DNA of 54,425 nucleotides, from positions 1 to 54,425 of the forward strand of contig JBDTVQ010000001.1 in the NCBI GenBank assembly GCA_040007195.1, written 5' to 3'. Position 1 is the stretch's first letter. Each line of letters opens with the position of its first letter. Shown here piece after piece: positions 35,426 to 53,470 of the stretch. This DNA comes from Acidobacteriota bacterium (GTDB lineage: Bacteria > Acidobacteriota > Terriglobia > Bryobacterales > Bryobacteraceae). The position numbers were made by a program, and so were the translations under genes. Below the pieces are notes generated by a model. The model saw nothing but the letters and a program-made list of their open reading frames with translations. It had not been told where the DNA came from and ran no database searches.

Positions 35426-37522
35426 ATGCAAAAGGTGAAGCGTTCCGCGTCGAGCGTGGCCGCGGCGATGTGGCTGATTGGCTTGTGTTTTTTGGCTGCG
35501 GCCTCGCCGGCGGCAGGTGCAGAAAAGTTTGACATCGTCGTGTTCGGCGGGACTCCAGGCGGCATTTCGACGGCGATTACCGCGGCGCGTCTTGGAAACA
35601 CGGTGGCGCTATTGGAGTATCACAATCATCTCGGCGGCATGGCGGCAAGCGGCCTGGGAAAGACCGATATTGAGACGCCGGAGGCGATTGGAGGACTGTT
35701 CAAGGAGTTCATCGCACGGGTCTACAAATACTACGTCGGTAAGTATGGAGCCGATTCGGAAAACGTCAGGCTCTGCCGCGGCGGCTATTACTATGAACCT
35801 TCGGTGGCGGAGAAGATCTTCGACGAAATGGTCGCGGCCGAGTCGCGCATTCGCGTGTTTCGCAACCACCGGCTGGATCGCGTGTCGCGTTCCGGGACGC
35901 GCGTGGTGAGCCTGACGGCGACAGACCGGAAGACGGAATCGCCGACCGAATTCGAGGGCAAGATGTTCGTCGATGCGACGTACGAAGGCGATCTGGCGGC
36001 CTTTGCGGGCGCCCGGTACAGGCTGGGGCGGGAGAGCCGCTCCGAGTTCAACGAACTGCATGCCGGAGTGGTGTATCAGGATCCCAAGACTCGCACGTTC
36101 CTGGCCGGAACTACGGGCGAAGGCGATCGCAGGCTGCAAGCCTACACGTTCCGCCTGTGCCTGACCACCGATCCGGCGAATAGCCGAAAGATGACGTCGG
36201 CGCCGCCGGATTACGACCGCAGCCGGTATGCGGGTTATATCGACGACTGGAAGGCGGGCCGGCTGGGCAACGCGCAACCTGCGATGGAAGGCGTAACGAA
36301 TGCCGTTCGCACCGGTGGGGGAACCACGCTGCGGGCCTTTACCATTGCGCCGCTGCCCAACCACAAAACGGACTGCAATATGTTTCCGCGCGTGCTGGCG
36401 TATCCGTTTGTCGAGCTCAACTACGACTATCCCGAAGCGGGCGAAAAGCGCCGGACTGAGATCACCACGCGCATTCGCAATGTGACTAAGGGCCTGCTGT
36501 ACTTTCTCCAGAACGACAGTGAGGTTCCCCAAGAGCATCGCAAACTCGCCAACCAATTCCACTTCCCCAAGGACGAGTTCGCCGACAACGACTACTTTCC
36601 CTGGCAGTTGTACGTGCGTGAAGCGCGGCGCATTGTGGGGATGTACACATTGACTGAAAACGACATGATCCTTGCCCCAGGATTGGACCGGACCCGCATT
36701 CAGGCCGACAGCATTACGGCGGGCGAGTTTCCCATCGACAGCATGCCGGTGCGCGGACCGGAGAAGGGACAGGACGTGATTCTGGAAGGCTACCTGCTGA
36801 TGTTGAACAACATCACGCGGCCTTACCAGATCCCGTACCGGATCATCGTTCCCGAGGCGGTGGACAGCCTGCTCGTACCGGTGGCGGCGTCGACAACACA
36901 CGTGGCATTTTCGAGCGTCCGGCTGGAGCCTACGTGGATGGCGCTCGGGCAGGCGGCTGCCGTGGCGGCGCATCTGGCAATCGAAACAAACCGCCAGCCA
37001 AGACAGTTGACCGCTCACGAACTGCAGCGGATTCTCTTGCGGCAGAAGCAGGTGTTGACTTACTTCACCGATCTTGACTTGAAGGATCCGGCGTTTGAGG
37101 CGATGCAGTTTTTGGGCGCGCGCGGTTTCTTTACCAGTTATGAATCGCGCCCGAAAGAGACGCTGTCGCAGGCCGCCGCAGCGCGCTGGATGGGTCTGGC
37201 GTTGAAGGCCGGCGGAATGGACATTCAGGTGAACGCAGGCAGCTCGCCTTCGAGCATGGATCTTAAGACGCTGGCTATGCTCGGCATCGCGGATCGTGCC
37301 GCGGATGGCCGGACGCTTCAGGCCGATGCCCCGCTCTCTCGCGCGGATTTCAAGAAGTGGCTGGCGGCGACAGGCGTCGTGCTGGGCGCGTGGCAGCGCT
37401 CGGGCGACGTTAGCGGCACGGAAGCGCTTTGGAAAGCCGAGGGTTTGGCTGCCAACGGTGAATTGAGCCGTGGTGAGTTCTGCAGGGCTATCTACAGGCT
37501 GTTGGAGAAAACCGGACACTAG
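35426..37522 (+). CDS. FAD-dependent oxidoreductase (FAD_oxidored type), hydrophobic leader, paralogue F1
   Basis: The leader AAMWLIGLCFLAAASPAAGA is followed directly by FDIVVFGGTPGGISTAITAARLGNTVALLEYHNHLGGMAASGLGKTDIE. The alternative start is TTG 35420. Confidence 0.85.
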   Translation: MQKVKRSASSVAAAMWLIGLCFLAAASPAAGAEKFDIVVFGGTPGGISTAITAARLGNTVALLEYHNHLGGMAASGLGKTDIETPEAIGGLFKEFIARVYKYYVGKYGADSENVRLCRGGYYYEPSVAEKIFDEMVAAESRIRVFRNHRLDRVSRSGTRVVSLTATDRKTESPTEFEGKMFVDATYEGDLAAFAGARYRLGRESRSEFNELHAGVVYQDPKTRTFLAGTTGEGDRRLQAYTFRLCLTTDPANSRKMTSAPPDYDRSRYAGYIDDWKAGRLGNAQPAMEGVTNAVRTGGGTTLRAFTIAPLPNHKTDCNMFPRVLAYPFVELNYDYPEAGEKRRTEITTRIRNVTKGLLYFLQNDSEVPQEHRKLANQFHFPKDEFADNDYFPWQLYVREARRIVGMYTLTENDMILAPGLDRTRIQADSITAGEFPIDSMPVRGPEKGQDVILEGYLLMLNNITRPYQIPYRIIVPEAVDSLLVPVAASTTHVAFSSVRLEPTWMALGQAAAVAAHLAIETNRQPRQLTAHELQRILLRQKQVLTYFTDLDLKDPAFEAMQFLGARGFFTSYESRPKETLSQAAAARWMGLALKAGGMDIQVNAGSSPSSMDLKTLAMLGIADRAADGRTLQADAPLSRADFKKWLAATGVVLGAWQRSGDVSGTEALWKAEGLAANGELSRGEFCRAIYRLLEKTGH

Positions 37523-37526
37523 CACT

Positions 37527-40500
37527 ATGCCGAGGGACGCGTCCAAGTTGCTGCTGTTATCGGGCGTATTCGCGCTGGCCGCCAGTGGCGCCACGGTGGA
37601 CTTTACCGGCGAGGTTCTGCCGATCTTTCAGGCTTCCTGCTTTGCGTGCCACTCTGGGCCACACGCTCAGGCCGGGCTGCGGCTGGATACGCCGGGGAGC
37701 CGGCCGTCGATCCTCCCGGGTAATAGCACGGGCAGCGTATTGATACATCGCATTCTGGGTCAACGCGGCGCGCAGCGGATGCCACCTGCCGGCGATCCGC
37801 TTACGCCGGAGCAGGTGGCCGTCATCCGTGCATGGATCGACGAGGGCGCGATGCGTCCGGCGTTGGACATCGATTTTGTGGCCGACATAGAGCCGATACT
37901 CAAGACCTCGTGCTACGGGTGCCATGCGGGAGCGCAACCGAAAGCGCAACTGCGGTTGGACGTTCGGAGCGCGGCTTTCGCGGGCGGGCTTTCGGGACCG
38001 GTGATTATCCCCGGAGACAGCGGCCGAAGCCGGCTGATGCATCGCATTCAAGGTATAGCGGGCGAGCAGCGCATGCCGCTGAAAGGAACTCCGCTCAGCG
38101 ACAAGCAGATCGCGTTGCTGGGCAAGTGGATCGATCAGGGCGCCATCTGGCCCGATTCCGCCGCGGGTGCCAGCGTTGCGGTTGAGAGGCATTGGGCTTA
38201 CATCAAGCCGGTGAGGCGCGCTCCTCCGGCTGTTCGGAATGGAGCATGGGTTCGAAACCCAATCGACGCGTTCGTCCTCGCTCGTCTGGACAAAGAAGGC
38301 CTGCCGCCCTCGCCCGAAGCGAGCAAAGCGGCGCTGATCCGGCGCGTCAGCCTGGACCTGACCGGACTGCCACCGACCATTCGCGAGGTTGATGAATTTG
38401 TCGCGGACCAGAGCGCGGACGCTTATGAAAAGTTGGTCGACCGTCTGCTTCGCTCCCCGCGTTACGGCGAGCGCTGGGCGCTCCCGTGGCTGGATCTTGC
38501 GCGGTACGCCGATAGCAACGGCTACGAGAAAGACCGGCGGCGCAGCATTTGGAAGTATCGCGACTGGGTAATAGACGCCCTCAATCGTGACATGCCGTTC
38601 GATCAGTTCACGATCGAGCAACTGGCCGGCGACCTGCTGCCGAACGCGACGGCATCCCAGAGGATCGCTACCGGCTTTAACCGGAACACGCTGTTCAACG
38701 ATGAGAACGGCGTCGACCAGGAGGAAGCGCATTTTGAAACTCTTGTGGACCGGGTGAACACCACGGCGACCGTGTGGCTGGGCAGCACGATTGGCTGTTC
38801 CCAATGCCACAACCACAAGTTCGATCCTTTTACGCAGAAAGAGTACTACCAGCTCTTCGCCTTCTTCAATAACGCCGATTACGTCATGGAAGGCGATGCA
38901 GCAAACGGGCGCGCGCGCCTGATCGAACCGAAGCTGGAACTGGCAACAGCGGAACAGCAGGCTGAGCGAGACCGCCTGAATGCCGCCATTACCGGCCTGG
39001 ACAAACGAACAGAAGCCCGGCGTGCGGAAATCGATGCTGCCCAGGCGAAGTGGGAGCAGGAGATTGCTGCGTCGCGTTCCAGATGGACTGTTCTTGAACC
39101 CGTGGCGCGGCGCTCGACGGCAGGCACGACGCTTACACGGAACGCAGACCTGTCGATCGTCGCAAGCGGCGCAAACCCCGCGCGCGACACCTACACGATT
39201 GAGGCGAAGCAGTTGCGGCGGAGCGGAGCGATCACGGGACTGCGCCTGATGGCGCTGCCCGACCCGACGCTCCCTCGTGGCGGGCCGGGACGCGATGTTT
39301 ATGGAAATTTCTGGCTCACGGAATTGACGGTGGAAGTGATTCCGGCCGGTGAGCACGGCCAGGCGAAACCGGTGGCTATCCGCAAGGCCGTGGCCGATGA
39401 CGGAACGCTTGAGTTGGGCGCGGGCGCGAACCAGGGTTGGCTTGTAGACGCGACCAGAGAGACGGAACGGCAGTGGCGCCATGCGGTGTATGTTTTCGAC
39501 AAACCAATCGATGCCTCTGATGGCGTCGTGCTGCGGGTGCGGCTGCGGCATGAATCGGAGATCAGTGGCAAGGCCCTGGGGCGCTTCAGTCTAGCTGTTA
39601 CGACGGCGGAAGATCCCACGCCTACCGCCACGGTGCCGCTGCGGCTGCGAGCCGCTTTGGATACGCCCCGCGCCGAGCGCACGGAGGCACAGAAGAGTCA
39701 GCTGGCCACATACTACGAGTCGGTGACGCCGCTGCTCGGGGCTGAGCGGGAGCAGCGGACTCGAATTGCCAAAGAGCTGGAGCGCTTGGAAATTCCGACG
39801 ACCCTGGTGATGCGGGATCTACCGGACGGGCAAGAACGTCCGGCTCACGTTCACATCCGCGGAGGGTTTCGAAATCTGGGCGAGCTGGTCAAGCCGGGAG
39901 TACCTGCCGTGCTCCACCCGCTTGACGGCAATCAGCCGGAGAACCGGCTAAGCCTGGCGCGATGGCTGGTGAGCAAAGAGAATCCGCTGGTGGCGCGAGT
40001 GACGGTGAACCGGATTTGGGAACAATACTTCGGACAGGGGCTAGTGGAAACGAGCGAGGATTTCGGCACGCAGGGTGAACGCCCGTCGCATCCGGAACTC
40101 CTGGATTGGCTGGCCACTGAATTCATGAGCCACGACTGGAGCATGAAAGAGATCCACCGATTGATCGTGACCTCGGCGATGTACCGGCAAAGTTCAGTGG
40201 CGAAAGCGTCTCTTCTCGAGCGTGATCCGAAGAACCGCCTGCTTGCGCGCGGGCCCCGTTTCCGGATGGGTGCGGAGATGATCCGCGATACGGCGCTTGC
40301 GGCGAGTGGACTGCTGAGCGCGAAAATCGGCGGGCCAAGCGTCTTTCCTCCGCAACCGGAAGGAACCTGGCACGGGGATATCTGGAACACGAGCGAGGGC
40401 GAGGACCGCCACCGGCGCGGGCTGTACACCTTCGCCAAGCGCACTTCCCCTTATCCCGCTTTTATCGCCCTCGACGCGCCGAGCCGTGAGTTCTGCATCG

Positions 40501-40853
40501 TCCGCCGCGCGCGCACGAACACGCCGCTGCAGGCTCTGACCACGCTGAACGATCCGGTATTCTTCGAAGCTGCACAAGCGCTCGCTCTGCGGATGTTGTC
40601 GGAAGGCGGGCGCGACGCCGCTGCCCGCGCGACATGGGGGTTTCGATTAAGTGTTTCCAGGCACCCCAGGCCCGAGGAACTGGAGCGAATTCTCGACTTG
40701 TATCGCAAGCAACTGGCGCGATTCGACCGCGATCCGGGAGCGGCACGAAAAGTGGCTCCTGGCGGCGCCCAGACCGGGCAGGCCGAAAGTGCCGCGTGGA
40801 CGATGGTGGCGAACGTCCTTCTGAATTTGGACGAGGCCATCACGAAGGAGTAA
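37527..40853 (+). CDS. PSCyt1 x2 + PSCyt2 (DUF1549) + PSD1 (DUF1553) protein (planctomycete cytochrome-c-like family)
   Basis: A signal peptide is followed by two CxxCH motifs, each in a repeat (CFACHSG...RMPP...AWIDEGA; CYGCHAG...RMPL...KWIDQGA). Then come [65 protein letters not shown] and [12 protein letters not shown] long C-terminal DUF1553-like region follows. Confidence 0.85.
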
Positions 40854-42299
40854 ATGAGAATGACGCACCCGCTCCTGGCTCAGCATCGCGTTCGGGAAGA
40901 GATCCGGAAAGCCGTTACGCGCCGGCATTTTTTCTCCAGTACAGGTTTCGGCATTGGCGGCGCTGCGCTCACATCACTGCTCAACGCGGAGACCAGTACG
41001 GGATCGCTGCGTGCTCCGCATTTCGCACCACGGGCTAAAAGCGTCATTTTCCTATTCATGGCGGGTGGGCCGTCACAGGTCGATATGTTCGACCACAAAC
41101 CAAAACTCGCGGAAATGGATGGCCAGCCGGTTCCGCTAGGACTGATCAAGGGCGAGCGGTTTGCGTTCATCAAGGGTGTCCCCAAACTTCTGGGCTCGCC
41201 GCATCAGTTCAAACGATATGGGCAGTCCGGCGCGGAGATTTCCAATCTGCTGCCGCACCTGGCAACGGTGGCGGACGATATTGCCATCGTCCGTTCGATG
41301 AACACCACGCAGATCAACCACGCCCCGGGGCAGATTTTCATGAACACGGGCCATCAGATTGCGGGCAGGCCTAGCCTGGGCGCGTGGACCACTTACGGCC
41401 TGGGGAGCCCGAATGCCGATTTGCCCGGGTTCATGGTGTTGCTCTCCGGACAGGGGCAGCCCGACGGCGGCAAGTCATGTTGGGGATCGGGTTTTCTTCC
41501 CACCGGATTTCAGGGGGTGGAGCTTCAGCCCAAGAACGATCCGGTACCCTTCTTGACTGATCCGGCCGGCGTCAGCCGCGATGCCCGGCGCGAGGCGCTC
41601 GATTCGCTGCAAGGGCTGAACGAGATGCACCACGAGCAGACGGGCGATCCGGAAATCGCCACACGCATCGCCGCATTTGAGATGGCGTACCGGATGCAGT
41701 CCAGCGTTCCTGAACTGCTGGCGAGCACAAAGGAACCCGACGCCGTTCACAAGATGTACGGAACAACGCCGGGCCCGTCGTTCGCAAACAATTGCCTGTT
41801 GGCGCGGCGCATGGTGGAGCGCGGCGTGCGGTTCGTCCAGCTCTATCACAAGGGATGGGACACGCATGGAACCAAGATCGACGAGGACATCGTCAACAAG
41901 CTGTCGCTGCTGTGCCGCGAGACCGACCGGGCGGCGGCGGCTCTCGTCGCAGACCTTAAGATGCGCGGACTGCTCGATTCCACTTTGGTTGTTTGGGGCG
42001 GCGAATTTGGAAGGACTCCGATGAATGAGGGACGGTCGAATTTCCTCGGACGCGATCACCACCCACGGGCCTTCACGATGTGGCTTGCGGGTGGGGGAAT
42101 CAAGCCGGGGACCACTCTTGGCGTAACCGATGAATTCGGATATGGTGTGGTGCAAGATCCTGTCAGCGTTCATGACCTGCATGCAACGATTCTTCATTGC
42201 CTGGGGATGGATCACACGCGGCTGACTTACAAGTTTCAAGGCAGGGATTTCCGGCTCACCGATGTGGAAGGCGAAGTAGTGAAAAAACTGTTGTCCTAG
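40854..42299 (+). CDS. DUF1501 domain-containing protein (sulfatase/alkaline-phosphatase-like fold), Tat signal
   Basis: The leader is [22 protein letters not shown]. Motifs are [36 protein letters not shown] and GRDHHP. The ATG abuts the stop of the preceding gene (TAA ATG at 40851-40856). Confidence 0.85.
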
Positions 42300-42341
42300 C
42301 GCAGTTGCCTTCGTGAGACAGCAAAAAGCGAATCGAGAAAC

Positions 42342-43646
42342 ATGACTCCTAGTGCCGGAATACAAACCAGTGAGCATCGGCCACCGCCGGCGGATTCACG
42401 CTACAAGTGGGCCGTGGTGGCCATGTTGTGGTTTGTCTGCTTCTTCAACTATGCGGACCGGCAAGCCATCTTTTCCGTGTTCCCCCTTCTGAAAGTGGAG
42501 TTGCAGTTGTCCGATGTGCAACTGGGCATCGTCGGTGCGGCGTTCATGTGGGTTTATGCCGCGGCGGCACCGATGGCCGGGCTCGCCGGTGACAGGTTCA
42601 AGCGGAAGACGCTCATCATTGGCGGGCTGGTGTTCTGGTCGCTGATCACGATTGCCACGGCGCTCTCCACGCGATACTGGCACCTGGTCGTTTTCCGCGC
42701 GCTGGAGGGACTGGGCGAGGCATTCTACTTCCCGGCGTCGATGGCTCTGGTGAGCGATTATCACGGCCCGGAGACGCGGTCGCGCGCGATGTCGATTCAT
42801 CAATCGAGCGTCTACGCGGGCACCATTGCCGGAGGGACGGCGGCGGGTTTTCTGGGCCAACATTACGGATGGCGTTCGAGCTTTCTCCTGTTTGGCGGAC
42901 TGGGTGTAATTCTCGGCGTGGCACTGTTGGCGCTGTTGCGGGAACCGGCGCGAGGACAGGCGGAAAGTGCGGGCGGTTTAGCGCCAGAGACGCAACCGCT
43001 CAGTGGATGGCAGTCCATCCGTTCACTCCTGGCCAATCCGATGGTTCGAGTGTTGACCGCAGTGTTCGTGGGCGCCAACTTCGTCGCCATGGTTTTCCTG
43101 ACTTGGATGCCTTCGTATTTCTACAACCATTTCGGATTGAGTCTGTCGATGGCCGGGCTGAACGGGACGGCCTATCTACAAATCGCCTCCGTGCTGGGAG
43201 TGATCGCCGGCGGCGTGCTGGCAGACCGCATGGCGCGACGCCAGAAGGGCGGCCGCATGATGACGCAAGCCATCGGCCTGATCGCAGGCGTGCCGTTTAT
43301 CTTCATTGCCGGATGGACGCTGGCCGTGCCGGTGCTGCTGATGGCGCTGGTCGGCTTCGGATTTTTCAAGGGCATGTACGACGCCAACATCTGGGCGTCT
43401 CTTCATGACGTAGTACCGCCGGAAAGACGCGCCGCAGCGGTGGGATTGATGAATTCGGTGGGATGGCTGGGCGGTGGAATCGCCCCCGTGGCCATCGCGG
43501 CGGCTTCCGAGCGCTATGGCATGAGCGCGTGCCTGAGCAGCACGTCGGCAATCTATCTGGTAACCGGGCTTTTCCTTGCGCTTGCGGTACGCAGGTATGC
43601 GCGAAGCCCGGGCATCCGGCAACCCATTGAGTCGAGGACGAACTAA
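42342..43646 (+). CDS. MFS transporter
   Basis: About 12 hydrophobic segments are present. The MFS loop motif is GLAGDRFKRKTLII, and the N-terminus reads NYADRQAIFSVFPLL. Confidence 0.85.
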   Translation: MTPSAGIQTSEHRPPPADSRYKWAVVAMLWFVCFFNYADRQAIFSVFPLLKVELQLSDVQLGIVGAAFMWVYAAAAPMAGLAGDRFKRKTLIIGGLVFWSLITIATALSTRYWHLVVFRALEGLGEAFYFPASMALVSDYHGPETRSRAMSIHQSSVYAGTIAGGTAAGFLGQHYGWRSSFLLFGGLGVILGVALLALLREPARGQAESAGGLAPETQPLSGWQSIRSLLANPMVRVLTAVFVGANFVAMVFLTWMPSYFYNHFGLSLSMAGLNGTAYLQIASVLGVIAGGVLADRMARRQKGGRMMTQAIGLIAGVPFIFIAGWTLAVPVLLMALVGFGFFKGMYDANIWASLHDVVPPERRAAAVGLMNSVGWLGGGIAPVAIAAASERYGMSACLSSTSAIYLVTGLFLALAVRRYARSPGIRQPIESRTN

Positions 43647-44462: not shown

Positions 44463-46818
44463 CGCTCTGCTTTGTGCGGCCATTTGTGGACAGGCGGCGG
44501 CGAAGGATCTCGACCTGACGAACGCCGTTGTGGTTGTCCCGGCGAACGCCAGCCGTCAGGAGCGGAAGGCGATTCAGGTGCTGGTGGAGGAGGTGGAGAA
44601 GCGCACGCAGATTCGTCTGCCGGAGGGCGCGGCGCCTGCGAATGGCGCCGGCATTGTGATCGAACGGGGCACGGCCGCAGCGCCCGCGGAAGGGTACCGG
44701 ATTGCGGTAGAGGGGAAGTTGGTTCGTGTCACGGGTAACGATGCACGCGGAATATTGTTCGGCATCGGCCATTTGCTGCGGAGTCTGCGCATGACCAAGC
44801 TGGCCATCAGCGTGCCGGAGGATCTCAGGGTGACCACTGCGCCAAAGTTTGCCATGCGCGGCCACCAATTAGGCTACCGGCCGAAGCCGAACTCCTACGA
44901 TGGCTGGACGCTGCCGATGTGGGAACAGTACATCCGCGATCTGGCGATATTCGGAACGAATGCCATTGAATTGATCCCGCCACGCTCGGACGATGCCGCC
45001 GATAGCCCGCACTTCCCGCTGTCGCAGATCGACACGATGATCGGCATGTCGCGCATCTGCGACGACTACGGGCTCGACGTCTGGATCTGGTATCCGGCGA
45101 TGGACAAAGACTACTCCGATCCGAAGACGGTGGAGTTCGCGCTGAAGGAGTGGGGCGGCGTATTCAGCAAGCTGCCTCGCGTGGACGCAGTGATGGTTCC
45201 CGGCGGCGACCCCGGACATACGCAGCCCAAATACCTGATGGCGCTGCTGGAAAAACAGACCGCAAATCTGCGCCGCTATCACCCGAAAGCAACGATGTGG
45301 GTGGCGCCTCAAAGCTTCAGCCGGGATTGGCTGAACGAGTTCCTGGAAATCGTGAAGACCGAGCCCGCGTGGCTACAGGGCATTGTCTATGGACCACAAA
45401 CGCGCATCTCGCTGCCTCAACTGCGGGCCGCCATTCCAAAAAAGTATCCGCTGCGCCACTACCCCGATATCACGCACAGCCGCCACAGCCAATTCCCGGT
45501 GCCCAACTGGGATACGGCGTTTGCGCTGACCGAGGGTAGAGAGATCATCAATCCACGGCCGCTCCAGATGGCCTCTATCTTTCGCCTGCTGCAGCCGTAC
45601 ACGGTGGGCGCAATTACCTATTCGGAAGGCTGCAACGATGACGTGAACAAGTTTCTTTGGAGCGCGCTTGGCTGGAACCCGGACGCCGATGTGACGTCGA
45701 TCCTGCGCGAGTACAGCCGATACTTCATCGGCGAAGCGTACACAGATACGTTTGCCCAGGGCTTGCTGGCGCTGGAACGAAACTGGACGGGCAGTGCGAT
45801 CGCCAACCAGGGAATTGAGGTAACTCTCCAGCAGTTCCAGAGTATGGAACATGAGGCCAATCCGCAGGAGCGTCTCAACTGGCGGTTTCAGCAGGCGCTG
45901 TACCGCGCCTACTACGACGCCTACACGCGCAGCCGCCTGATTTATGAGACCGCGCTTGAGGAACAGGCGATGGCCAGACTGCGCGACGGCGTGCGGCTGG
46001 GAGGTCTGGTGGCCTTGCAACAAGCGGAGCCGATTCTCGATAGGGCAGTGACTGAGCCCGTTTCGCAGGATTGGCGGGCCCGCGTGCTGGAACTGGGTGA
46101 GGCGCTGTTTCAAAGCATTCGAATGCAGCTCAGCGTGGAAAAGTATCAGGGCCAGGCGGTAGGACGGGGAGCGAACCTGAACACGCTCGACTTCCCGCTT
46201 AACAGCCGGCTTTGGCTGAAGGAGAGATTCCAGGAACTGCGCCAGCCCATTGGGGAAACCGAGCGCGTTAAGCGAATAGCGGCTATTACCGGATGGAAGA
46301 ATCCTGGCCCGGGCGGCTTCTACGATGATCTGGGCAAAATCGACCAACAGCCGCACCTGGTTCGCGGAAAGGGATTTCCGGAGGACCCGTCGTTCATGGA
46401 GTCCAGCCACATCACTTCGGCCAACGAATCGTACGATTCAAGGAATCCGATCAAAGGGGACTTTGCGCTGGTTGGAGTGGGGCTGCAACCGGCCGGCCCG
46501 TTTTCCTGGTGGGACATTGCCGAGACGCTTTATGATGCGCCGCTGGAGATGCGGTACGAAGGGCTCGACCCAGCGGCTCAATACAAGGTTCGCGTCGTCT
46601 ATGTGGGCGGCGCTATGGATGCAAAGATTCAATTGCAGGCCGACGGCCGGTTCGAGGTGCATCCACTGATCGCCAAGGCGCTGCAACCGATGGAATTCGA
46701 GATTCCACACGAGGCGACGGCCGACGGCGCGCTGCTGTTGAGCTGGCGACAGGCCGCCGATAACCGTGGCGCCGGCCGTGGCTGTCAGGTTGCCGAGATC
46801 TGGCTACTGAGGAAATGA
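44434..46818 (+). CDS. Secreted putative glycoside hydrolase (GH20b/GH67N-like N-terminal domain + TIM-barrel-like core), family unassigned
   Basis: AAGGAGAG precedes TTG 44434. A signal peptide (LAISALLCAAICGQAAA) is followed by GYRIAVEGKLVRVTGNDARGILFGIGHLLRSL and FAMRGHQLGYRP...WEQYIRDLAIFGTNAIELIPP...DVWIWYP...VMVPGGDPG. No catalytic residues could be assigned by eye. Confidence 0.55.
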   Translation: MKRTATLAISALLCAAICGQAAAKDLDLTNAVVVVPANASRQERKAIQVLVEEVEKRTQIRLPEGAAPANGAGIVIERGTAAAPAEGYRIAVEGKLVRVTGNDARGILFGIGHLLRSLRMTKLAISVPEDLRVTTAPKFAMRGHQLGYRPKPNSYDGWTLPMWEQYIRDLAIFGTNAIELIPPRSDDAADSPHFPLSQIDTMIGMSRICDDYGLDVWIWYPAMDKDYSDPKTVEFALKEWGGVFSKLPRVDAVMVPGGDPGHTQPKYLMALLEKQTANLRRYHPKATMWVAPQSFSRDWLNEFLEIVKTEPAWLQGIVYGPQTRISLPQLRAAIPKKYPLRHYPDITHSRHSQFPVPNWDTAFALTEGREIINPRPLQMASIFRLLQPYTVGAITYSEGCNDDVNKFLWSALGWNPDADVTSILREYSRYFIGEAYTDTFAQGLLALERNWTGSAIANQGIEVTLQQFQSMEHEANPQERLNWRFQQALYRAYYDAYTRSRLIYETALEEQAMARLRDGVRLGGLVALQQAEPILDRAVTEPVSQDWRARVLELGEALFQSIRMQLSVEKYQGQAVGRGANLNTLDFPLNSRLWLKERFQELRQPIGETERVKRIAAITGWKNPGPGGFYDDLGKIDQQPHLVRGKGFPEDPSFMESSHITSANESYDSRNPIKGDFALVGVGLQPAGPFSWWDIAETLYDAPLEMRYEGLDPAAQYKVRVVYVGGAMDAKIQLQADGRFEVHPLIAKALQPMEFEIPHEATADGALLLSWRQAADNRGAGRGCQVAEIWLLRK

Positions 46819-46841
46819 GGCGAGTTGGCCTGGTCACTAAG

Positions 46842-48008
46842 ATGAATACAAAACAACTAATTACTGCTCTATTGCCTTTACTCTGGGTGCCGTGCGTGCA
46901 TGCGGAGGGAAAGATGCTGGCAATTCCAGGCCAGCCAGCCGATCCGCATACGATTGCATGGGGCTCGCCGGGCATTCCCCATCTTCAGGAACCGCCGGTC
47001 ACGATATTCGCGGGCGTCAAAGATGAGTCCACTTACAACAATCATGCCTATCTTGAATTTTTCGACGGTAAGTTTTGGGCGATGTGGTCGACGCATCCCA
47101 CCAACGGCAATTTCCATGGGATGACTGTCGTCTACTCCACGAGCGTGGACGGCACTAAGTGGAGCGCGCCGGGGCCCATCACGACCATCCCGGCCGGGAA
47201 GCGTTACGTCGCCCGCGGCTTCTGGAGCCGCAATGGAAAGTTGCTTGCTTTGGCTAGTTTCGACTCCGGCCAGCCAAAGAGCCAGAAATATTGGGCGGCG
47301 CCCGACCTGGAGCTTCAGGCTTTTGAGTGGAATCCGAAGACGGCAAAATGGTCGCTTCTCGGCGTGGCTTACAAGGACGCCATCAATAACTTTCCGCCGA
47401 AAAAATTACCCGGCGGGCAGTGGATGATGGCGCGCCGCGATTACCAGTTCCGGCTGACGCTGATGACGGGAGGGGTCGCCGGATTCGACCGCTGGGCGAT
47501 CTCCGAAGTCCCTAACCCCGAAGACCGTTCCTTTAACGAGCCCGACGTTGTGGTGCGCGCCGACGGCAGCGTGGCGATGCACATACGCGACAACTCCCGG
47601 TCGAAGTGGCTATACCGGTCGGTTAGCAAGGATGGCGGTTTGACGTGGAGCGTGCCCGAGCAGACTAATTTCCCCGATGCGACTTCGAAGAATTTCAATC
47701 TCCGCCTGAGCAATGGCCTTTACGTGCTGGTGAGCAATCCGAGTCCGAACTCGCGCGTTCCCCTCACCGTTGGCACGTCTCGCGACGGCGCCACCTATGA
47801 CCGGATCGCGATTGTCGACGATACGCCCGGGGGACCGCGGATTCCGGGAGTCGACAAGGGACCAGGCTATACATATCCGCACGCCATTGAGCATGGCGGG
47901 TATCTCTATGTGATTTATTCGCGGCACCGCGACGACATCGTCGTCCGTCGGGTAAAGATCGGCGATCTGGCCAAGCTGCCGGCGCCTTCATGGGGGATGA
48001 AACAATGA
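46842..48008 (+). CDS. BNR/sialidase-fold propeller protein, divergent paralogue P4
   Basis: A signal peptide is followed by FDGKFWAMWS, STSVDGTKWS, SVSKDGGLTWSVPEQTNFPDATSKNFNLRLSNGLYVLVSNPSP, SRDGATY and YPHAIEHGGYLYVIYSRHRDDIVV. The alternative start is 46815. Confidence 0.8.
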   Translation: MNTKQLITALLPLLWVPCVHAEGKMLAIPGQPADPHTIAWGSPGIPHLQEPPVTIFAGVKDESTYNNHAYLEFFDGKFWAMWSTHPTNGNFHGMTVVYSTSVDGTKWSAPGPITTIPAGKRYVARGFWSRNGKLLALASFDSGQPKSQKYWAAPDLELQAFEWNPKTAKWSLLGVAYKDAINNFPPKKLPGGQWMMARRDYQFRLTLMTGGVAGFDRWAISEVPNPEDRSFNEPDVVVRADGSVAMHIRDNSRSKWLYRSVSKDGGLTWSVPEQTNFPDATSKNFNLRLSNGLYVLVSNPSPNSRVPLTVGTSRDGATYDRIAIVDDTPGGPRIPGVDKGPGYTYPHAIEHGGYLYVIYSRHRDDIVVRRVKIGDLAKLPAPSWGMKQ

Positions 48009-49456
48009 GCGTCATGACAAGACGAGGACTTTTGGCTGGAGTTGCGCCGGCGTTTTTACGTGGCCAGTCCGCTGCCCGCCGGAACGTGCTTTTCATCGGA
48101 GTGGACGATTTGCGGCCGCAGCTGGGCTGCTACGGCGACCGCTTCGCGAAATCGCCGAACATCGACGGGCTGGCATCGCGCGGCGTGACCTTCGATCGGG
48201 CCTACTGCCAGCAGGCGGTCTGCGGGCCATCGCGGTCTTCGCTCCTCACTGGACTGCGTCCGGACACCATCCGCGTCTACGATCTCAACACGTCGTTCCG
48301 CGTTGCCGTGCCGGATGCTGTAACGCTGCCGCAGTTATTCCTGAATCACGGCTACCACACCGAAAATATCGGCAAGATCTTCCACGGCACCGAACTGATG
48401 AATGACCGCCGCAGCTGGTCTGTTCCGGAACGCCTGAACATGGTGACCAAGCGCGAACAGTACGCGCTCACCAAGAACAAGCCCGCCGAAGACTGGACCA
48501 AAACCGTAGCCACCGAACGCGCCGACGTTCCCGACGATGGCTATATTGACGGGCGCGTCGCCTTGGATGCGGTTGAGACGCTGCAGCGGCTCAAAGGCAA
48601 GCCGTTCTTTCTGGGCGTGGGGATCACCAAGCCGCACCTGCCGTTTACGGCTCCGGGAAAATACTGGGATCAGTTCAATCGGGCGCAACTGCCGCTGCCG
48701 CCCAATCTAGAGTGGCCCAAAGATGCGCCCCGGTTCGCGATTCCCACTTACAGCGAGTTACGCAGTTACGCCGACTTCCCCGACGAGGGGCCGATCTCCG
48801 AAGCGAAGATGCGCGAGGCGATTCACGGCTACTATGCGGCCTCGTCCTACGCCGACGCCTGCATTGGCAAGGTGCTGAACGAACTGGATCGCCTGGGCCT
48901 GCGCGACAACACGGTGGTGGTCCTATGGGGCGATCACGGCTGGCATCTCGGCGAGAATACGCATTGGGGGAAGTCCACCAACTTCGAGATCTGCACACGC
49001 GTGCCGATGATCGTTTCGGCGCCCGGGGCGGGAAAGGCGGGAGTCCATTCGCCCGCGCTGGTGGAATGCGTGGACATGTATCCGACGCTCGCCGAACTGT
49101 GCGGTTTGCCCGCGCCCTCCACGCTTGAGGGAACCAGCATGGCGCGCCTGTTGAAAGATCCGCGCCGGCACTGGAAGACGGCTGCGTTCAGTCAGTATCC
49201 CCGCTCTTCGAAAACGAGCGTGGGGAGCGCGGCGATCCTTGGCGGCGACGTGATGGGCTATTCGATGCGGACCAATGACTACCGCTATAACGAGTGGCGC
49301 GACAAGGGCGGCCACGTGCTGGACACCGAGCTCTACGACCATATCAAGGACCCGGCCGAGACGGTGAACGTCGCCGGACAGGCCTCCTATGGAAAGGTAT
49401 TGACGGAGATGAAAAAGATGATGCAAGCCGGCTGGCGGGGCGCCCAGCATGTTTAG
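48005..49456 (+). CDS. Cys-type sulfatase, iduronate-2-sulfatase-like
   Basis: The Tat-like leader is MTRRGLLAGVAPAFL. The N-terminus reads NVLFIGVDDLRPQLGCYGD...SPNIDGLASRGVTFDRAYCQQAVCGPSRSSLLTGLRPDT (CxPxR formylglycine motif). Also present are KPHLPF and VVLWGDHGWHLGE. The ATG overlaps the P4 stop (ATGA). Confidence 0.85.
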   Translation: MSVMTRRGLLAGVAPAFLRGQSAARRNVLFIGVDDLRPQLGCYGDRFAKSPNIDGLASRGVTFDRAYCQQAVCGPSRSSLLTGLRPDTIRVYDLNTSFRVAVPDAVTLPQLFLNHGYHTENIGKIFHGTELMNDRRSWSVPERLNMVTKREQYALTKNKPAEDWTKTVATERADVPDDGYIDGRVALDAVETLQRLKGKPFFLGVGITKPHLPFTAPGKYWDQFNRAQLPLPPNLEWPKDAPRFAIPTYSELRSYADFPDEGPISEAKMREAIHGYYAASSYADACIGKVLNELDRLGLRDNTVVVLWGDHGWHLGENTHWGKSTNFEICTRVPMIVSAPGAGKAGVHSPALVECVDMYPTLAELCGLPAPSTLEGTSMARLLKDPRRHWKTAAFSQYPRSSKTSVGSAAILGGDVMGYSMRTNDYRYNEWRDKGGHVLDTELYDHIKDPAETVNVAGQASYGKVLTEMKKMMQAGWRGAQHV

Positions 49457-51650
49457 AACGGCGGGCGCAGTATTTTTCTGCGCAGTGGCCGCCGCCGCTC
49501 AAGGCCCGGCGGCGCTGCTGGCCGATCCCGCGGCGTTGGCCTCACCGAAGCAATTGCAGGTGGTCCCCTCACGCACGTCGAGCATCTATCGAGCCGAAGC
49601 GGGCCAGTGGCAGTTTAACCTGCACTCGTATGTCACCCATTTCGAGGGAAGGTTCTGGGCCATCTGGTCTTCCGGGCGTGTCGACGAAGACAGCCCGAGC
49701 CAATTGATTCGATATTCAACCAGCGCCGATGGACACCGTTGGGAGACGCCGAAGATCTTAGTGGACGATCCCGATGGCGAGGACAAGCCGGGCCGTTGGA
49801 TTGCGCGAGGCATCTACGTGCAGGATGGAAAGCTTCAGGCGTTGAACGCCTACGTGGAGGGATCGCAAGAGACTCCGCGCGGCCGCGAGTCGTGGCGGAA
49901 CCTGCGCCTGGTACGGTTCGAGTGGAACGGCAAGGGCTGGCAGAACCGCGGAACCTATCTCGATAACTGCATGAACAACTATCCGCCCAGAGTTCTCGAC
50001 GGGCACCTGTTCATGACGTGCCGCGATAGCTTCGCCAAGATGCACACGGCCCGTGCCGAATCCACGAGCGGAACGGGGTGGACCGTAACGGCGCTGCCCG
50101 GTGCGCCCCCGCACGACAAGATGAGCGAGCCCAGTTGGTACACGGATTCGCAAGGCGTCGCGCATCTCATTTTTCGCGACGGAGGCCGCTCGCACCTTCT
50201 TCATCATTCCTTGAGCCAGGACGGGGGGAAAACCTGGAGCGCCCCGGTACAGACCAACTATCCCGACGCGACGAGCAAAAACATTGCGGGCCGCTTATCC
50301 AATGGCTGGTACTTTCTGGTGAACAATCCCGATCCGAAGAGCCGAGATCCCCTGGCGATTTCGTTTAGCCGCGATGGCTGGACGTTCGACAAGCCCCGGG
50401 CACTGCGGATGAATGCGCCCACGCAGAGGTTCGGCGGGCGCGCGAAGACGGTGAATAGCTTTCAGTACCCGCATGTACTGGAGAAGGATGGATCGCTGTG
50501 GGTGATCTGTTCGACGAACAAGGAAGATATCGAAATTTCCCAGTTCAAGATCGCGGATTTTGGATTGGAACGGCTGCCCGAGAGGCTGCTCAGCACCGAC
50601 GGGCTGTTGCGTGATCCTCTGAATCTTCCGGAAGCTCCCGGCCGCAGGGGGACCGTATTCCGGGGGGAAGAGAACAAATCCGGGTTCAACCTCCACTCTT
50701 ATCTCGCGCACCACGATGGCAAATTCTGGGCTATCTGGTCCTCAAGTGCCGTCGGCGAGGAGGACCCGGATCAGCACATTCTGTATGCGACCAGCAAGGA
50801 TGGACTGAACTGGAGTTCGGCGAAGGTGCTGGTTGCGGATCCGGATGGTCCTCAGGGACCGGCGCGCTGGATTGCACGCGGAATTTATGTCGACCAGGGA
50901 AAGCTTACGGCGCTAGGCGCCTATATCGAGAGCGCCGATTACGGCAAACGAGGGAAAGCGGAAGTGTGGAAGGCTCTGCGGTTGATGCGCTTTGAATGGA
51001 CCGGCAAGGGTTGGGAACCGAAGGGTGTATTTGCCGATAACTGCATGAACAACTTTCCGCCCGAGCGTCTGGGGGCGTATCTGTCTCTGGTATGCCGCGA
51101 CAGCAACATGACGGTCAAGATGGCGCTGGCCGACGCGCCCGGCGCAAACGCATGGAAGTTTACCCCGCTTGCCGCCCATCCGCCGTACGACAAGATGGAT
51201 GAGCCGACTTACTATGCCACCGGCAACGGCGAAGTCCACATGATCGTGCGGGATAACTCGCGTTCCGGTTACCTGCTACGCGCCATCAGCCGCGACTATG
51301 GACAGACTTGGTCGCAGCCCGTCCGGACCAACTATCCCGACGCCACCAGTAAGAATTTTCCGGGCCGCCTTTCCAACGGCTGGTATTTTCTCATCAATAA
51401 TCCCAATCCAAAGGCGCGCGATCCGCTGGCGATATCGTTCAGCCGCGATGGTTGGGAGTTCAGCCACTCGATGGCTATTCGGAAGAACGCGCCGCCCCGC
51501 CGGTTTGCGGGGCGGGCAAAAGGAAGCGGGAGCATGCAGTATCCGCACGCAATCGAGCACGGTGGCTCACTTTGGGTGATCTATTCCACCAACAAAGAAG
51601 ATATTGAAGTCGCCGAATTACCGCTGAAGAACCTGGAGTTGCCACGATGA
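49449..51650 (+). CDS. Tandem double BNR/sialidase-fold propeller protein (P3a-P3b fusion)
   Basis: There is one signal peptide, then two complete copies of the P1/P2 motif set. The first copy ends ...STNKEDIEISQFKIADFGLE. The second begins at ...LLRDPLNLPEAP... and ends STNKEDIEVAELPLKNLELPR. Confidence 0.85.
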   Translation: MFRTAGAVFFCAVAAAAQGPAALLADPAALASPKQLQVVPSRTSSIYRAEAGQWQFNLHSYVTHFEGRFWAIWSSGRVDEDSPSQLIRYSTSADGHRWETPKILVDDPDGEDKPGRWIARGIYVQDGKLQALNAYVEGSQETPRGRESWRNLRLVRFEWNGKGWQNRGTYLDNCMNNYPPRVLDGHLFMTCRDSFAKMHTARAESTSGTGWTVTALPGAPPHDKMSEPSWYTDSQGVAHLIFRDGGRSHLLHHSLSQDGGKTWSAPVQTNYPDATSKNIAGRLSNGWYFLVNNPDPKSRDPLAISFSRDGWTFDKPRALRMNAPTQRFGGRAKTVNSFQYPHVLEKDGSLWVICSTNKEDIEISQFKIADFGLERLPERLLSTDGLLRDPLNLPEAPGRRGTVFRGEENKSGFNLHSYLAHHDGKFWAIWSSSAVGEEDPDQHILYATSKDGLNWSSAKVLVADPDGPQGPARWIARGIYVDQGKLTALGAYIESADYGKRGKAEVWKALRLMRFEWTGKGWEPKGVFADNCMNNFPPERLGAYLSLVCRDSNMTVKMALADAPGANAWKFTPLAAHPPYDKMDEPTYYATGNGEVHMIVRDNSRSGYLLRAISRDYGQTWSQPVRTNYPDATSKNFPGRLSNGWYFLINNPNPKARDPLAISFSRDGWEFSHSMAIRKNAPPRRFAGRAKGSGSMQYPHAIEHGGSLWVIYSTNKEDIEVAELPLKNLELPR

Positions 51651-53470
51651 CAAGATTTGCACTTTTCCTGATTGCGTTGACGCCCATTTGGGCGGTCCAA
51701 CAATTCGACGTGGTCGTCTACGGCGGCACTCCGGGAGGTGTGGCTTCCGCTGTCAGTGCCGCGCGCAGCGGGCACAGCGTGGCGCTCATCGAGTATCACA
51801 AGCATCTCGGCGGCATGACGACCAGCGGTCTCGGCAAATCCGACATTGAAACACGCGAGGCAATCGGCGGGCTGTTTCGCGAGTTCGTGGGCGAAGTCCG
51901 CCGCCACTACATCGAGCACTATGGAGCGTCGTCGGAGAACGTCAAGCTGGCGCGCGACGGCTATTACTTCGAGCCGTCGGTGGCGCAGCGCGTGATCGAC
52001 CGGATGGTATCGGCCGAAAGCCGCATCAAGGTATATACTTACCACCGGCTGGAAGAAGCGGTTCGGGAGGGCAATCGACTTACCGCGATCCGCGTCCTCA
52101 ACCGGGCTACGAATACTGTCGATGAGTTTCGCGGGCGGATCTTTATCGATGGAACCTATGAAGGCGACTTACTTGCCTTCGCCGGTGCGCGCTACAGGCT
52201 GGGACGGGAAAGCCGGGCGGAGTTCAATGAGTTGCATGCCGGAGTCGTGTACCAAGACCACGAGACGCGCACGTTTCTCGCGGGCACGACCGGCAAGGGC
52301 GATAAGAGAATTACGGCATACACCTACCGGCTGTGCCTCACCACCGATCCGGCCAACAGCCACGTGCTGCGCCAGCCGCCGCCGGACTACGACCGCAGCC
52401 GGTACCTCGGCTATATCGACGATTGGAAGGCGGGCCGCATGGGGCCGCCGAAAGTTATGAAGGAAGGCGTGGGTTATTTCGCGCCGACGTTCAATACGAT
52501 GGTCCGCGTCTTTTCGATCGCCGAAATTCCGAACAAGAAAACCGACGTGAACATGAATCCGCGTCTGCCCGGTTTTCCATTTACGGAAGAGAACTACGCC
52601 TACCCCGAAGCGAACTGGGAGCAGCGCGAGAAAATTTCGGAGAAGATTCGTAACATCACGCTGGGGCTGCTCTACTTTATTCAGAACGATGAGGCAATCC
52701 CCGCCGAGCACCGCAAGCTGGCGAATCAGTACAATCTGGCCAAAGACGAGTTTGCCGACAATGACAATTTCCCGTTCCAACTGTATGTGCGTGAAGCGCG
52801 CCGTTTGGCCGGCCTTTACACGCTGACGGAAAATGACACGAACGTCGGTCCCGAACTGGGACGGACCCAAGTACACCAGGACAGCGTCGCGGCAGGCGAG
52901 TTTCCGATCGATAGCTTCCCGGTTCGAAAGCATGAGAAGGGGCATGACCTCGGACTTGAAGGCTACATCTTCATGCTCGACCAGATGACGAAGCCTTACC
53001 AGATTCCCTACCGGATCATGATTCCCGAAACGGTCGATGGGCTCATCGTGCCGGTGGCGGCATCGACGACGCATATCGCCTTCTCCACCATCCGACTGGA
53101 GCCGACCTGGATGGCACTGGGCCAAGCAGCGGGGGTGGCGGCCCACCTTGCCATCGAATCCAGTGTGCAGCCGCGCGCGGTGAACATTGATCGGCTGCAG
53201 CGTGAGATTTTGAAGCGTAACCAGGTGATCACCTATTTCAAGGACATCGACCACAAAGACCCGGCCTACGCGGCGCTGCAGTATTTTGGCGCCAAAGGTT
53301 TCTTCAACGACTATCAGGCGCGCTCGAGCGAACTGGTGGATGAGGAGACTGCGCGCAAATGGTGGAAAATCGCCACGGGTGAGGCGCCGCCAACGAACGC
53401 GGCGGGCGGTAGAACGCGCGGGCAGTTGTGCAACTTCCTCTACGAAATGACGGGTGCAAAGACGCGTTGA
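51647..53470 (+). CDS. FAD-dependent oxidoreductase (FAD_oxidored type), hydrophobic leader, paralogue F2
   Basis: The leader MTRFALFLIALTPIWAV is followed by FDVVVYGGTPGGVASAVSAARSGHSVALIEYHKHLGGMTTSGLGKSDIE. It is colinear with F1 throughout. The ATG overlaps the preceding stop (ATGA). Confidence 0.85.
   Translation: MTRFALFLIALTPIWAVQQFDVVVYGGTPGGVASAVSAARSGHSVALIEYHKHLGGMTTSGLGKSDIETREAIGGLFREFVGEVRRHYIEHYGASSENVKLARDGYYFEPSVAQRVIDRMVSAESRIKVYTYHRLEEAVREGNRLTAIRVLNRATNTVDEFRGRIFIDGTYEGDLLAFAGARYRLGRESRAEFNELHAGVVYQDHETRTFLAGTTGKGDKRITAYTYRLCLTTDPANSHVLRQPPPDYDRSRYLGYIDDWKAGRMGPPKVMKEGVGYFAPTFNTMVRVFSIAEIPNKKTDVNMNPRLPGFPFTEENYAYPEANWEQREKISEKIRNITLGLLYFIQNDEAIPAEHRKLANQYNLAKDEFADNDNFPFQLYVREARRLAGLYTLTENDTNVGPELGRTQVHQDSVAAGEFPIDSFPVRKHEKGHDLGLEGYIFMLDQMTKPYQIPYRIMIPETVDGLIVPVAASTTHIAFSTIRLEPTWMALGQAAGVAAHLAIESSVQPRAVNIDRLQREILKRNQVITYFKDIDHKDPAYAALQYFGAKGFFNDYQARSSELVDEETARKWWKIATGEAPPTNAAGGRTRGQLCNFLYEMTGAKTR

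Follow-up and report, generated by a model that had tools for sequence, protein, structure and literature searches.

Why should exported flavoproteins, a multi-CxxCH protein, β-propellers, a sulfatase and a large hydrolase share one operon, and what would they act on? This question is raised by ten plus-strand genes (35426–53470) of contig JBDTVQ010000001.1 (GCA_040007195.1) from an Acidobacteriota bacterium of the family Bryobacteraceae; the whole stretch analysed, 54,425 nt long, is called the window below. A first-pass annotation had described the operon as bracketed by two paralogous flavoproteins. The two proteins are indeed paralogues (61% identity over 572 aligned residues), but what other genomes conserve is the association of a propeller gene with a flavoprotein gene, as neighbours or as a fusion. 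This conserved, sometimes fused pairing of a GH143-like propeller with a distinct clade of PF12831 flavoproteins is the new element of the locus, and PDB sequence and Foldseek searches and a literature search returned no structure, assay or publication on it. We consider it somewhat more probable than not (about 0.55) that the surrounding genes serve the periplasmic exo-degradation of a sulfated acidic glycan bearing 2-keto-3-deoxy sugar acids, with the products then imported and cleaved by pyruvate aldolases. The ten genes encode the following products (aa, amino acids):

35426–37522, plus strand: exported PF12831 flavoprotein FADox1, 698 aa (328.8 bits; Sec-like leader; GGTPGG motif)
37527–40853, plus strand: protein with two PSCyt1 domains, PSCyt2 and PSD1 (PF07635, PF07583, PF07587) and three CxxCH motifs
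40854–42299, plus strand: DUF1501 protein, the usual PSCyt2/PSD1 partner (PF07394, 531.8 bits; twin-arginine (Tat) leader)
42342–43646, plus strand: MFS transporter of the anionic-sugar type, D-galactonate transporter-like (MFS_1, 230 bits)
43653–44462, plus strand: RraA-like cytoplasmic protein with a class II pyruvate aldolase/oxaloacetate decarboxylase fold (PF03737, 81 bits; DGAIRD motif)
44434–46818, plus strand: exported 794-aa glycosidase-like protein, the large hydrolase (GH20b N-domain PF02838, 35 bits, as sole Pfam match)
46815–48008, plus strand: GH143-like propeller, 397 aa (BNR_2, 89.4 bits; Beta-prop_BT_1020, 19.1 bits, under its cut-off)
48005–49456, plus strand: S1 formylglycine sulfatase with a Tat leader (PF00884, 158.9 bits; CGPSR at residues 78–82)
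49449–51650, plus strand: tandem of two GH143-like propellers, 733 aa (BNR_2, 146.6 bits in two stretches; Beta-prop_BT_1020, 50.7 bits)
51647–53470, plus strand: exported PF12831 flavoprotein FADox2, 607 aa (339.8 bits)

Every Pfam family named in the first-pass annotation was found above its gathering score.

The propeller–flavoprotein pair

Eighty genome loci were searched with a hidden Markov model of the window propellers and divided into close loci, with a flavoprotein of at least 50% identity (n = 17), and remote PF12831 loci (n = 63). Nine of the 17 close loci, but none of the 63 remote ones, have a strong propeller match at most 10 kb from the flavoprotein gene (Fisher p = 1e-7), and most of these nine propellers directly adjoin it. 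Adjacent pairs are present in Acidobacteriota, Verrucomicrobiota, Planctomycetota, Bacteroidota and Chloroflexota. At least five proteins (P0041, P0042, P0113, P0118 and a gene of locus L009) are fusions, always with the propeller preceding the flavoprotein and with about 10 residues leading from the last propeller strand to the Rossmann strand. Separate genes in propeller-then-flavoprotein order occur in the Bacteroidota Cyclobacterium qasimii M12-11B (L013) and Rhabdobacter roseus DSM 105074 (L014), and the reverse order is found in a Gimesia and a Chloroflexota metagenome-assembled genome (MAG). Three loci (L004, L005 and L086) combine a TonB-type transporter with a tandem propeller of 707–731 aa whose stop codon overlaps the flavoprotein start, as at 51647–51650 in the window.

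Larger gene sets accompany the pair in a Bryobacterales locus (L001: IclR regulator, transporter, four propellers, sulfatase, flavoprotein, DHDPS) and in two loci of Opitutaceae (L002 and L087: TonB receptors, sulfatases, propellers, flavoprotein and DHDPS, with an MFS gene adjoining that for DHDPS). The pair is often accompanied by genes for a sulfatase, a TonB-type receptor, a DHDPS aldolase and a transporter of acid sugars. The neighbourhood association of PF12831 with both a propeller and DUF1501, which had been put forward for checking, holds only for the propeller: PSCyt/DUF1501 genes lie within 10 kb at 4 of 24 close and 6 of 63 remote loci (Fisher p = 0.45). In the related loci examined, no gene for an RraA-like protein or for the large hydrolase was detected. 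The conserved core is therefore the GH143-like propeller together with this flavoprotein clade.

Two further gene types were seen near the pair. An α/β-hydrolase (esterase-like) domain recurs beside it, fused to a propeller or sulfatase or encoded by a standalone adjacent gene (L002, 6617–8746; L009, 11434–13359; L087, 5507–7477; L018, 12626–13498; proteins P0298 and P0311), which suggests that the substrate is also esterified. An amidase and a GFO_IDH_MocA gene occur together both beside a propeller–flavoprotein fusion (L003, 12932–17673) and beside a relative of the large hydrolase (L091, 3745–7782); in L003, the product of the next gene combines peptidase_S9 with SASA (sialate O-acetylesterase-like) domains.

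The operon had been credited with three BNR propellers, and three are present, but in only two proteins, the 397-aa single propeller and the 733-aa tandem. Counting three more encoded upstream (see below), five of the six propellers of the locus are 36–72% identical among themselves, the 397-aa protein being the most divergent of the five (36–39% identity to the rest). A profile of the window propellers and their relatives matches PDB entry 5mqr with an E-value of 5.3e-29 (chain residues 53–135 and 281–405) and GH33 sialidases with only about 2e-7; the tandem protein itself matches 5mqr with 5.1e-20. We take this 1108-residue bi-modular enzyme to be BT1020 of Bacteroides thetaiotaomicron, a reading with which the name of the Pfam model for BT_1020-like propellers (PF24067) concurs. 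Three of the propeller proteins exceed the cut-off of 27 bits of that model (50.7, 31.6 and 32.7 bits), and the propellers have the sequence similarity to the BT1020 propeller module that marks GH143. Although they do belong to the BNR_2 family, they are thus not the generic BNR proteins of the first-pass annotation, five of the six being related to the GH143 hydrolase of Dha (2-keto-3-deoxy-heptulosaric acid).

GH143 was created for the Dha-hydrolase module of BT1020, Dha has been described as a seven-carbon sialic acid analogue, and the second domain of BT1020 acts sequentially on the same side chain (PMC6811678). BT1020, encoded in a rhamnogalacturonan-II locus, is the nearest solved relative of the propellers and resembles some of the proteins found here in joining a propeller to a second catalytic domain, which is a GH142 β-L-arabinofuranosidase in BT1020 and a PF12831 flavoprotein in some of the organisms compared here. 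In contrast to the BT1020 system, the other rhamnogalacturonan-II enzymes are absent from the locus and a sulfatase is present.

Residues invariant across phyla include several arginines, a Tyr-Pro-His-x-x-Glu block and three Asp-boxes. R99, R172, R223, R279, Y320, E207 and E325 are invariant and D224 is nearly so (at least 90%), a pattern that would fit a sialidase-type carboxylate-binding site. Likeness to GH33 chains is weak. Kinship with GH143 implies that the released unit is probably a 2-keto-3-deoxy sugar acid, and would give the DHDPS-family and RraA-like aldolases a direct role. The propeller sequences hence point to such acids as the product.

FADox1, FADox2 and a third flavoprotein encoded upstream match PF12831 over profile positions 1–416 with 328.8, 339.8 and 268.5 bits (cut-off 27), which makes them full-length members, and FADox2 has more than 7000 relatives. 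The canonical GxGxxG motif is missing from FADox1 and FADox2: the clade has G-[GA]-T-x-x-G or a close variant at all 80 genome loci (L006–L085; 30–80% identity), whereas the third paralogue, 27% identical to FADox2, and the remote PF12831 matches keep GxGxxG. Retained in the clade are the acidic residue after strand 2 (E49) and a GG motif (G55, G56). Flavoprotein orthologues of Bacteroidota and Planctomycetota (L012, L013, L014, L017, L030 and L033) carry Tat leaders, which suggests export with a bound cofactor; in those of Acidobacteriota and Verrucomicrobiota (the window and L001–L007), a Sec-like leader runs directly up to the Rossmann strand. Because the glutamate and the GG motif are kept and several orthologues have Tat leaders, the clade probably binds a cofactor, presumably FAD. 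The flavoprotein also has many invariant arginines, which would suit an anionic substrate.

Sequence searches against the PDB matched only the first ~45–150 residues of the flavoprotein, that is, the N-terminal nucleotide-binding region. The AlphaFold model has a pLDDT of 76, with low confidence in the presumed substrate domain, and its Foldseek matches in the PDB are of the generic GR2 type only (monooxygenases, halogenases, geranylgeranyl reductases, ketosteroid and cyclohexanone dehydrogenases, and fumarate reductases). A literature search on PF12831 or FAD oxidoreductases in combination with sialidase, BNR or sulfatase returned nothing relevant. An older annotation of such proteins, "xanthan lyase", was dropped as a lead: two papers on xanthan report a FAD oxidoreductase only as an uncharacterised accessory gene beside an ABC transporter.

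The operon within a larger uptake locus

The open reading frame (ORF) listing and a reading of the junctions confirm that the ten genes are spaced by 0–42 nt or overlap, and all junctions cited earlier (40851–40856, 48005–48008, 51647–51650 and 49449–49456) were recovered. FADox1 starts at ATG 35426, with a TTG also at 35420, and ends at 37522, leaving a 4-nt gap to the gene of the CxxCH protein. The latter abuts the DUF1501 gene without any spacing (TAA-ATG, 40851–40856), followed by gaps of 42 nt to the MFS gene and 6 nt from there to the RraA-like gene. The start of the large hydrolase is most likely TTG 44434, which is preceded by an AAGGAG box; with this start, the gene overlaps the RraA-like gene by 29 nt. 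ATGA overlaps link the large hydrolase to the single propeller (46815–46818), the single propeller to the sulfatase (48005–48008) and the tandem propeller to FADox2 (51647–51650), and the sulfatase and tandem propeller genes overlap by 8 nt (49449–49456). Both flanking genes reported previously, a divergent AraC regulator upstream and a convergent gene at the far end, are present. The flanks, scanned for promoters and terminators as part of a 20-kb stretch, contain:

34429–35304, minus strand: divergent AraC-family regulator (HTH_18, HTH_AraC, AraC_binding)
35307–35334, plus strand: top sigma-70-like promoter match of the region, TCGACA-16-TAAAAT, 10/12, between the AraC gene and gene 1 (consensus match only)
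53472–53492, plus strand: top intrinsic-terminator-like hairpin of the region, a 7-bp stem with 6 G-C pairs and a T-rich tail (consensus match only)
53547–54320, minus strand: convergent ORF without Pfam match

The hairpin begins 2 nt past the stop codon of FADox2. Internal terminators are not indicated, since the 25 terminator-like matches are no excess over shuffled sequence (18.6 ± 4.9). Judged from spacing, a single transcript across 35426–53470 would fit the gaps of at most 42 nt, the five overlaps and the single promoter-like and terminator-like sites at the flanks. Leaders are found, as described before, on all products but the MFS and RraA-like proteins: they are Sec-like on FADox1, the CxxCH protein, the large hydrolase, both propeller proteins and FADox2, and of the twin-arginine type on the DUF1501 protein (TRRHFF) and the sulfatase (TRRGLL). 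The RraA-like protein lacks a leader and the MFS protein is an integral membrane protein.

The operon had been regarded as the functional unit, but that unit extends over about 32 kb (21754–53470, or 21.7–53.5 kb) as a two-operon, TonB-type nutrient-uptake locus in which the ten genes make up the right half. Its second plus-strand operon lies upstream of the AraC gene, and the extension adds three propellers and a TonB-type transporter. The upstream genes are:

21754–24228, minus strand: third PF12831 flavoprotein, 824 aa (268.5 bits; C-terminal F5_F8_type_C domain; Tat leader; GGGISG motif)
24267–25049, minus strand: IclR-family regulator (IclR_C, HTH_IclR)
25279–27447, plus strand: exported FGE-sulfatase-like domain (PF03781, 155.9 bits) fused to a divergent BNR propeller (PF13088, 79.1 bits)
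27502–30873, plus strand: TonB-type outer-membrane transporter, CarboxypepD_reg plus OMP_b-brl_4 (PF25183, 771 bits)
30930–32255, plus strand: GH143-like propeller (BNR_2, 83.5 bits; Beta-prop_BT_1020, 31.6 bits, cut-off 27)
32252–33382, plus strand: GH143-like propeller, 376 aa (BNR_2, 81.1 bits; Beta-prop_BT_1020, 32.7 bits)
33468–34373, plus strand: DHDPS/NAL-family class I pyruvate aldolase (PF00701, 104 bits)

Altogether, the locus encodes six propellers, three flavoproteins, one S1 sulfatase, one transporter per membrane and two kinds of pyruvate aldolase. The RraA- and DHDPS-type enzymes that had been listed together are both present, but the DHDPS gene belongs to the upstream operon. 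The propeller encoded at 30930–32255 is 56–72% identical to other propellers and its mature start is probably a Met near 31101. The propeller of the FGE-like fusion is only ~19% identical to the other five; this fusion has the leader MIRSCLVSLVLAGISLAAAQ and a likely start at an ATG near 25396. Export of the FGE-like domain is itself unexpected for a formylglycine-generating enzyme, because maturation of the Tat-exported sulfatase should take place in the cytoplasm. The related locus L001 likewise begins with an IclR gene, and the same kind of transporter as in the window heads L001, L004, L009 and L086. The closest relatives of the locus proteins are from Bryobacterales and other Acidobacteriota. 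None of the scanned proteins matched the SusD family, so an adjacent SusC/SusD pair is absent. Compared to the SusC/SusD polysaccharide-utilisation loci (PULs) of Bacteroidota, the transporter is of the acidobacterial CarboxypepD_reg plus OMP_b-brl_4 type, and the locus would work like a PUL without being one in the strict sense.

Among the remaining enzymes, the sulfatase is the most readily classified. It has both the C/S-x-P-x-R motif and the fold of S1 sulfatases, matches PDB entry 6hhm (E 4.5e-104) and human iduronate-2-sulfatase (E 1.6e-71), and presumably belongs to SulfAtlas subfamily S1_7. The 794-aa protein is modelled (AlphaFold, pLDDT 73) as a GH20b-type N-domain, a TIM barrel, a helical bundle and a β-sandwich. 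Its best Foldseek matches are uronidases of GH115, GH67 and GH138, besides GH84/GH20 (TM-scores 0.35–0.48, 10–15% identity). The GH115/GH67 α-glucuronidases and the GH138 α-galacturonidase have the same multi-domain build, but the likeness is at the fold level only (TM-scores 0.39–0.48) and no family threshold is reached, the NCBIfam alpha-galacturonidase model scoring 22.6 bits against a cut-off of 1300 and sequence membership in GH115, GH67 or GH138 being absent. The protein is probably an exo-acting glycosidase whose family has yet to be described, and uronidases are its closest structural neighbours. That family is highly conserved, with more than 7500 relatives; among those listed, identity is 61–74% and most belong to Acidobacteriota (Blastocatellia included), an Abditibacteriales MAG being a further source. 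It is annotated in public records as no more than "GH20 zincin-like fold domain-containing" and occurs in varied genomic contexts, the neighbourhoods of two relatives (L090 and L091) showing no recurrent propeller context.

The best NCBIfam match of the MFS protein is TIGR00893, at 186 bits and under the cut-off of that model. PDB matches of the DHDPS-family protein include KDG aldolases and N-acetylneuraminate lyases, and its GATGE, VYNLP and GIKES motifs supply the GxxGE signature, the catalytic Tyr and the Schiff-base Lys. The RraA-like protein matches PDB entries 3k4i and 3noj, the latter being the HMG/CHA aldolase; scores far below the cut-offs of the HMG/CHA aldolase equivalogs (NF006731, 46.6 against 179; TIGR02798, 44.2 against 304.5) restrict its assignment to the superfamily (PF03737, DGxxRD). 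In the multi-CxxCH protein, the motifs are CFACH at residue 38, CYGCH at 129 and CSQCH at 424. Pairs of PSCyt2/PSD1 and DUF1501 genes are very abundant in Planctomycetes, Verrucomicrobia and Acidobacteria, have no assigned function and often neighbour sulfatase genes (PMC5615132). Genes 2 and 3 of the operon, abutting and exported, are typical of such pairs, and it is only their position in the window that suggests a tie to the flavoproteins.

A candidate pathway and its alternatives

For the pathway we infer the substrate class, the order of the steps and all catalytic activities. The outer-membrane TonB-type transporter would take in oligosaccharides of a sulfated acidic glycan, from which the S1 sulfatase would strip sulfate in the periplasm. 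The 794-aa uronidase-like glycosidase would then take off a capping residue, probably a uronic acid, allowing the GH143-like propellers, members of the sialidase superfamily, to free 2-keto-3-deoxy sugar acids of the Dha, Kdo or Kdn type. Each propeller may be paired with an exported flavoprotein that acts on the same residue just before or after its release. The MFS carrier could bring the free acid into the cell, where the DHDPS-family (class I) and RraA-like (class II) aldolases would yield pyruvate and an aldose or aldehyde-acid. This course of events, in which a keto-acid sugar is freed by exo-acting enzymes, brought in by its own importer and finally split by a pyruvate lyase, has its counterpart in the systems that use sialic acid and rhamnogalacturonan-II. 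The exported products and the acidic sulfated target of the first-pass annotation are retained in this scheme, and the literature searched contains no characterised pathway with this gene combination, as had also been stated.

Candidate substrates might be green-algal scales or thecae, rhamnogalacturonan-II fragments, or bacterial capsules containing Kdo or Kdn. Plant rhamnogalacturonan-II is not known to be sulfated, and the presence of the sulfatase thus argues against this polymer in its plain form. Green-algal scales and thecae are rich in 2-keto sugar acids (PMC10762512).

Several points weigh against the proposed pathway. Most related loci lack the genes for the RraA-like protein, the large hydrolase and PSCyt/DUF1501, so the ten genes may not serve a single substrate. 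The propeller block QYPH..E, invariant here, is QYPR..Q in BT1020, so that specificity probably differs from that of BT1020, the only GH143-like protein with a measured activity; the flavoprotein clade has no characterised member. The replacement of GxGxxG by GGTxxG, together with the many Sec leaders, puts FAD loading and even binding in question. Finally, Foldseek found no solved structure in the PDB resembling the flavoprotein substrate domain, where the model is of low confidence, and with TM-scores of at most 0.35 no function is transferable from the generic GR2-type flavoproteins.

The alternatives, which overlap in part with this pathway and with one another, differ mainly in the role given to the flavoproteins and in how far the ten genes belong together. 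According to the first-pass annotation, the two flavoproteins oxidise the glycan to a keto-glycoside, electrons pass to the CxxCH (PSCyt) protein, and hydrolases cleave the activated bonds. FADox1 does lie 4 nt ahead of the triple-CxxCH gene, with both products exported, PSCyt/DUF1501 genes occur near the propeller–flavoprotein pair in L003, L008, L014 and L017 and a PSCyt1-ankyrin protein near that of L088, and genes for enzymes potentially able to process keto-sugars (aldo-keto reductase or GFO_IDH_MocA) are found in L003, L004, L013 and L086. However, the electron transfer was deduced from adjacency in this window, and we regard it as doubtful, given the lack of PSCyt/DUF1501 enrichment near the flavoprotein (p = 0.45, see above), their absence from the most complete related loci (L002, L087, L004, L086 and also L001, which has only a different, PSCyt3-type protein), and the lack of any likeness to known sugar-oxidising flavoenzymes in Foldseek. 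Periplasmic FAD-dependent glucoside 3-dehydrogenases likewise are exported flavoproteins near glycan-degrading genes, and the window adds an adjacent c-type haem protein; however, they have a GMC fold instead of the GR2-type PF12831 fold, the sugar-isomerase-like lyase that partners them in keto-glycoside routes was not seen here, and the cytochrome partner is not conserved. Alternatively, the flavoprotein could act on the ulosonic acid in a redox-neutral or non-redox manner, converting an anhydro or 2,3-unsaturated propeller product to the free acid, or serving as a lyase or hydratase, with no external acceptor. Most related loci indeed encode no dedicated redox partner, a coupled two-step reaction would suit both the fusions and the 1:1 pairing, and the atypical GGTxxG motif and many Sec leaders agree with it. 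Intramolecular trans-sialidases make 2,7-anhydro-sialic acid, which an NAD-dependent oxidoreductase reverts by transient oxidation, and this offers an analogy. Yet that analogue uses NAD, has another fold and is cytoplasmic, and the conserved Glu and GG motif and the Tat leaders of several orthologues suggest that a cofactor is present; we consider this chemistry unlikely.

Two further alternatives concern the locus as a whole. An ordinary nan-type cluster for Neu5Ac, with sialidase, NanA lyase and NanT transporter, was rejected as highly unlikely. NCBI names propeller relatives exo-alpha-sialidase, and a DHDPS-family lyase, MFS carrier and TonB receptor reproduce the nan pattern, in which a 2-keto-3-deoxy acid is released outside by an exo-acting GH33 sialidase, imported by NanT/TonB uptake and split by a DHDPS-family lyase. 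However, the match of the propellers to GH143 is stronger than that to GH33 by about 22 orders of magnitude, and neither ManNAc epimerase or kinase nor GlcNAc-6-P enzymes are among the proteins scanned from 18412–54320. Nor would such a cluster have a place for the sulfatase, the uronidase-like glycosidase, the class II RraA-like aldolase and the three flavoproteins, all additions to the nan scheme. The operon might also be a mosaic in which unrelated modules (PSCyt/DUF1501; MFS and RraA-like; large hydrolase; propellers, sulfatase and flavoprotein) merely share a transcript. Only the propeller, flavoprotein and sulfatase part recurs elsewhere, and relatives of the large hydrolase lie in unrelated contexts (L090 and L091), as a mosaic would predict. 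Against this, closely spaced or overlapping gene ends cross the module borders (43646/43653, 44434/44462 and 46815–46818), the ten genes have a single promoter-like and a single terminator-like site, and each module suits acidic-sugar breakdown, which makes an assembly of unrelated modules rather improbable.

Returning to the exo-degradation of a sulfated, ulosonic-acid-bearing glycan, we offer only as a tentative possibility that the propeller and the Thr-motif PF12831 clade form an unrecognised two-component enzyme with flavin-assisted chemistry on 2-keto-3-deoxy acid glycosides. If so, ulosonic-acid linkages would be cleaved or converted by a new mechanism distributed over at least five bacterial phyla. 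Many surface glycans of plants, algae and bacteria, such as rhamnogalacturonan-II, are capped with or built from Kdo, Dha, Kdn or sialic acids; the GH143 type has one characterised enzyme and the use of such sugars by soil and freshwater Acidobacteria, Verrucomicrobia and Planctomycetes is undescribed. From its gene content, the locus appears distinct from SusC/SusD PULs, nan clusters and the known keto-glycoside route. By sequence, its propellers are classifiable as GH143-like. The flavoprotein clade, which is tied to propellers by adjacency and fusion, numbers thousands of proteins; identifying its reaction would annotate a very large family and might reveal a new route of glycan breakdown. 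The ten-gene hypothesis is narrowed by the analysis to a two-gene core that can be tested in the cultured C. qasimii and R. roseus.

Other genes of the window

The remaining part of the window contains a second TonB-type locus (7726–15544) with a LacI regulator (7726–9051), an 862-aa protein without Pfam match (9406–11994, minus strand) and another CarboxypepD_reg/OMP_b-brl_4 transporter (12083–15544, minus strand). Between this and the locus described above (15853–21636) lie genes for a 7-bladed lactonase (15853–17079), a ThuA-like protein (17099–17932) and a secreted 1074-aa thermolysin-type M4 peptidase with an Ig domain (18412–21636). Near the start of the window, an ORF with a SIR2_2 domain (2167–2961), a domain often found in anti-phage defence proteins, stands beside ORFs without family match (2861–3646 and 4448–5839).

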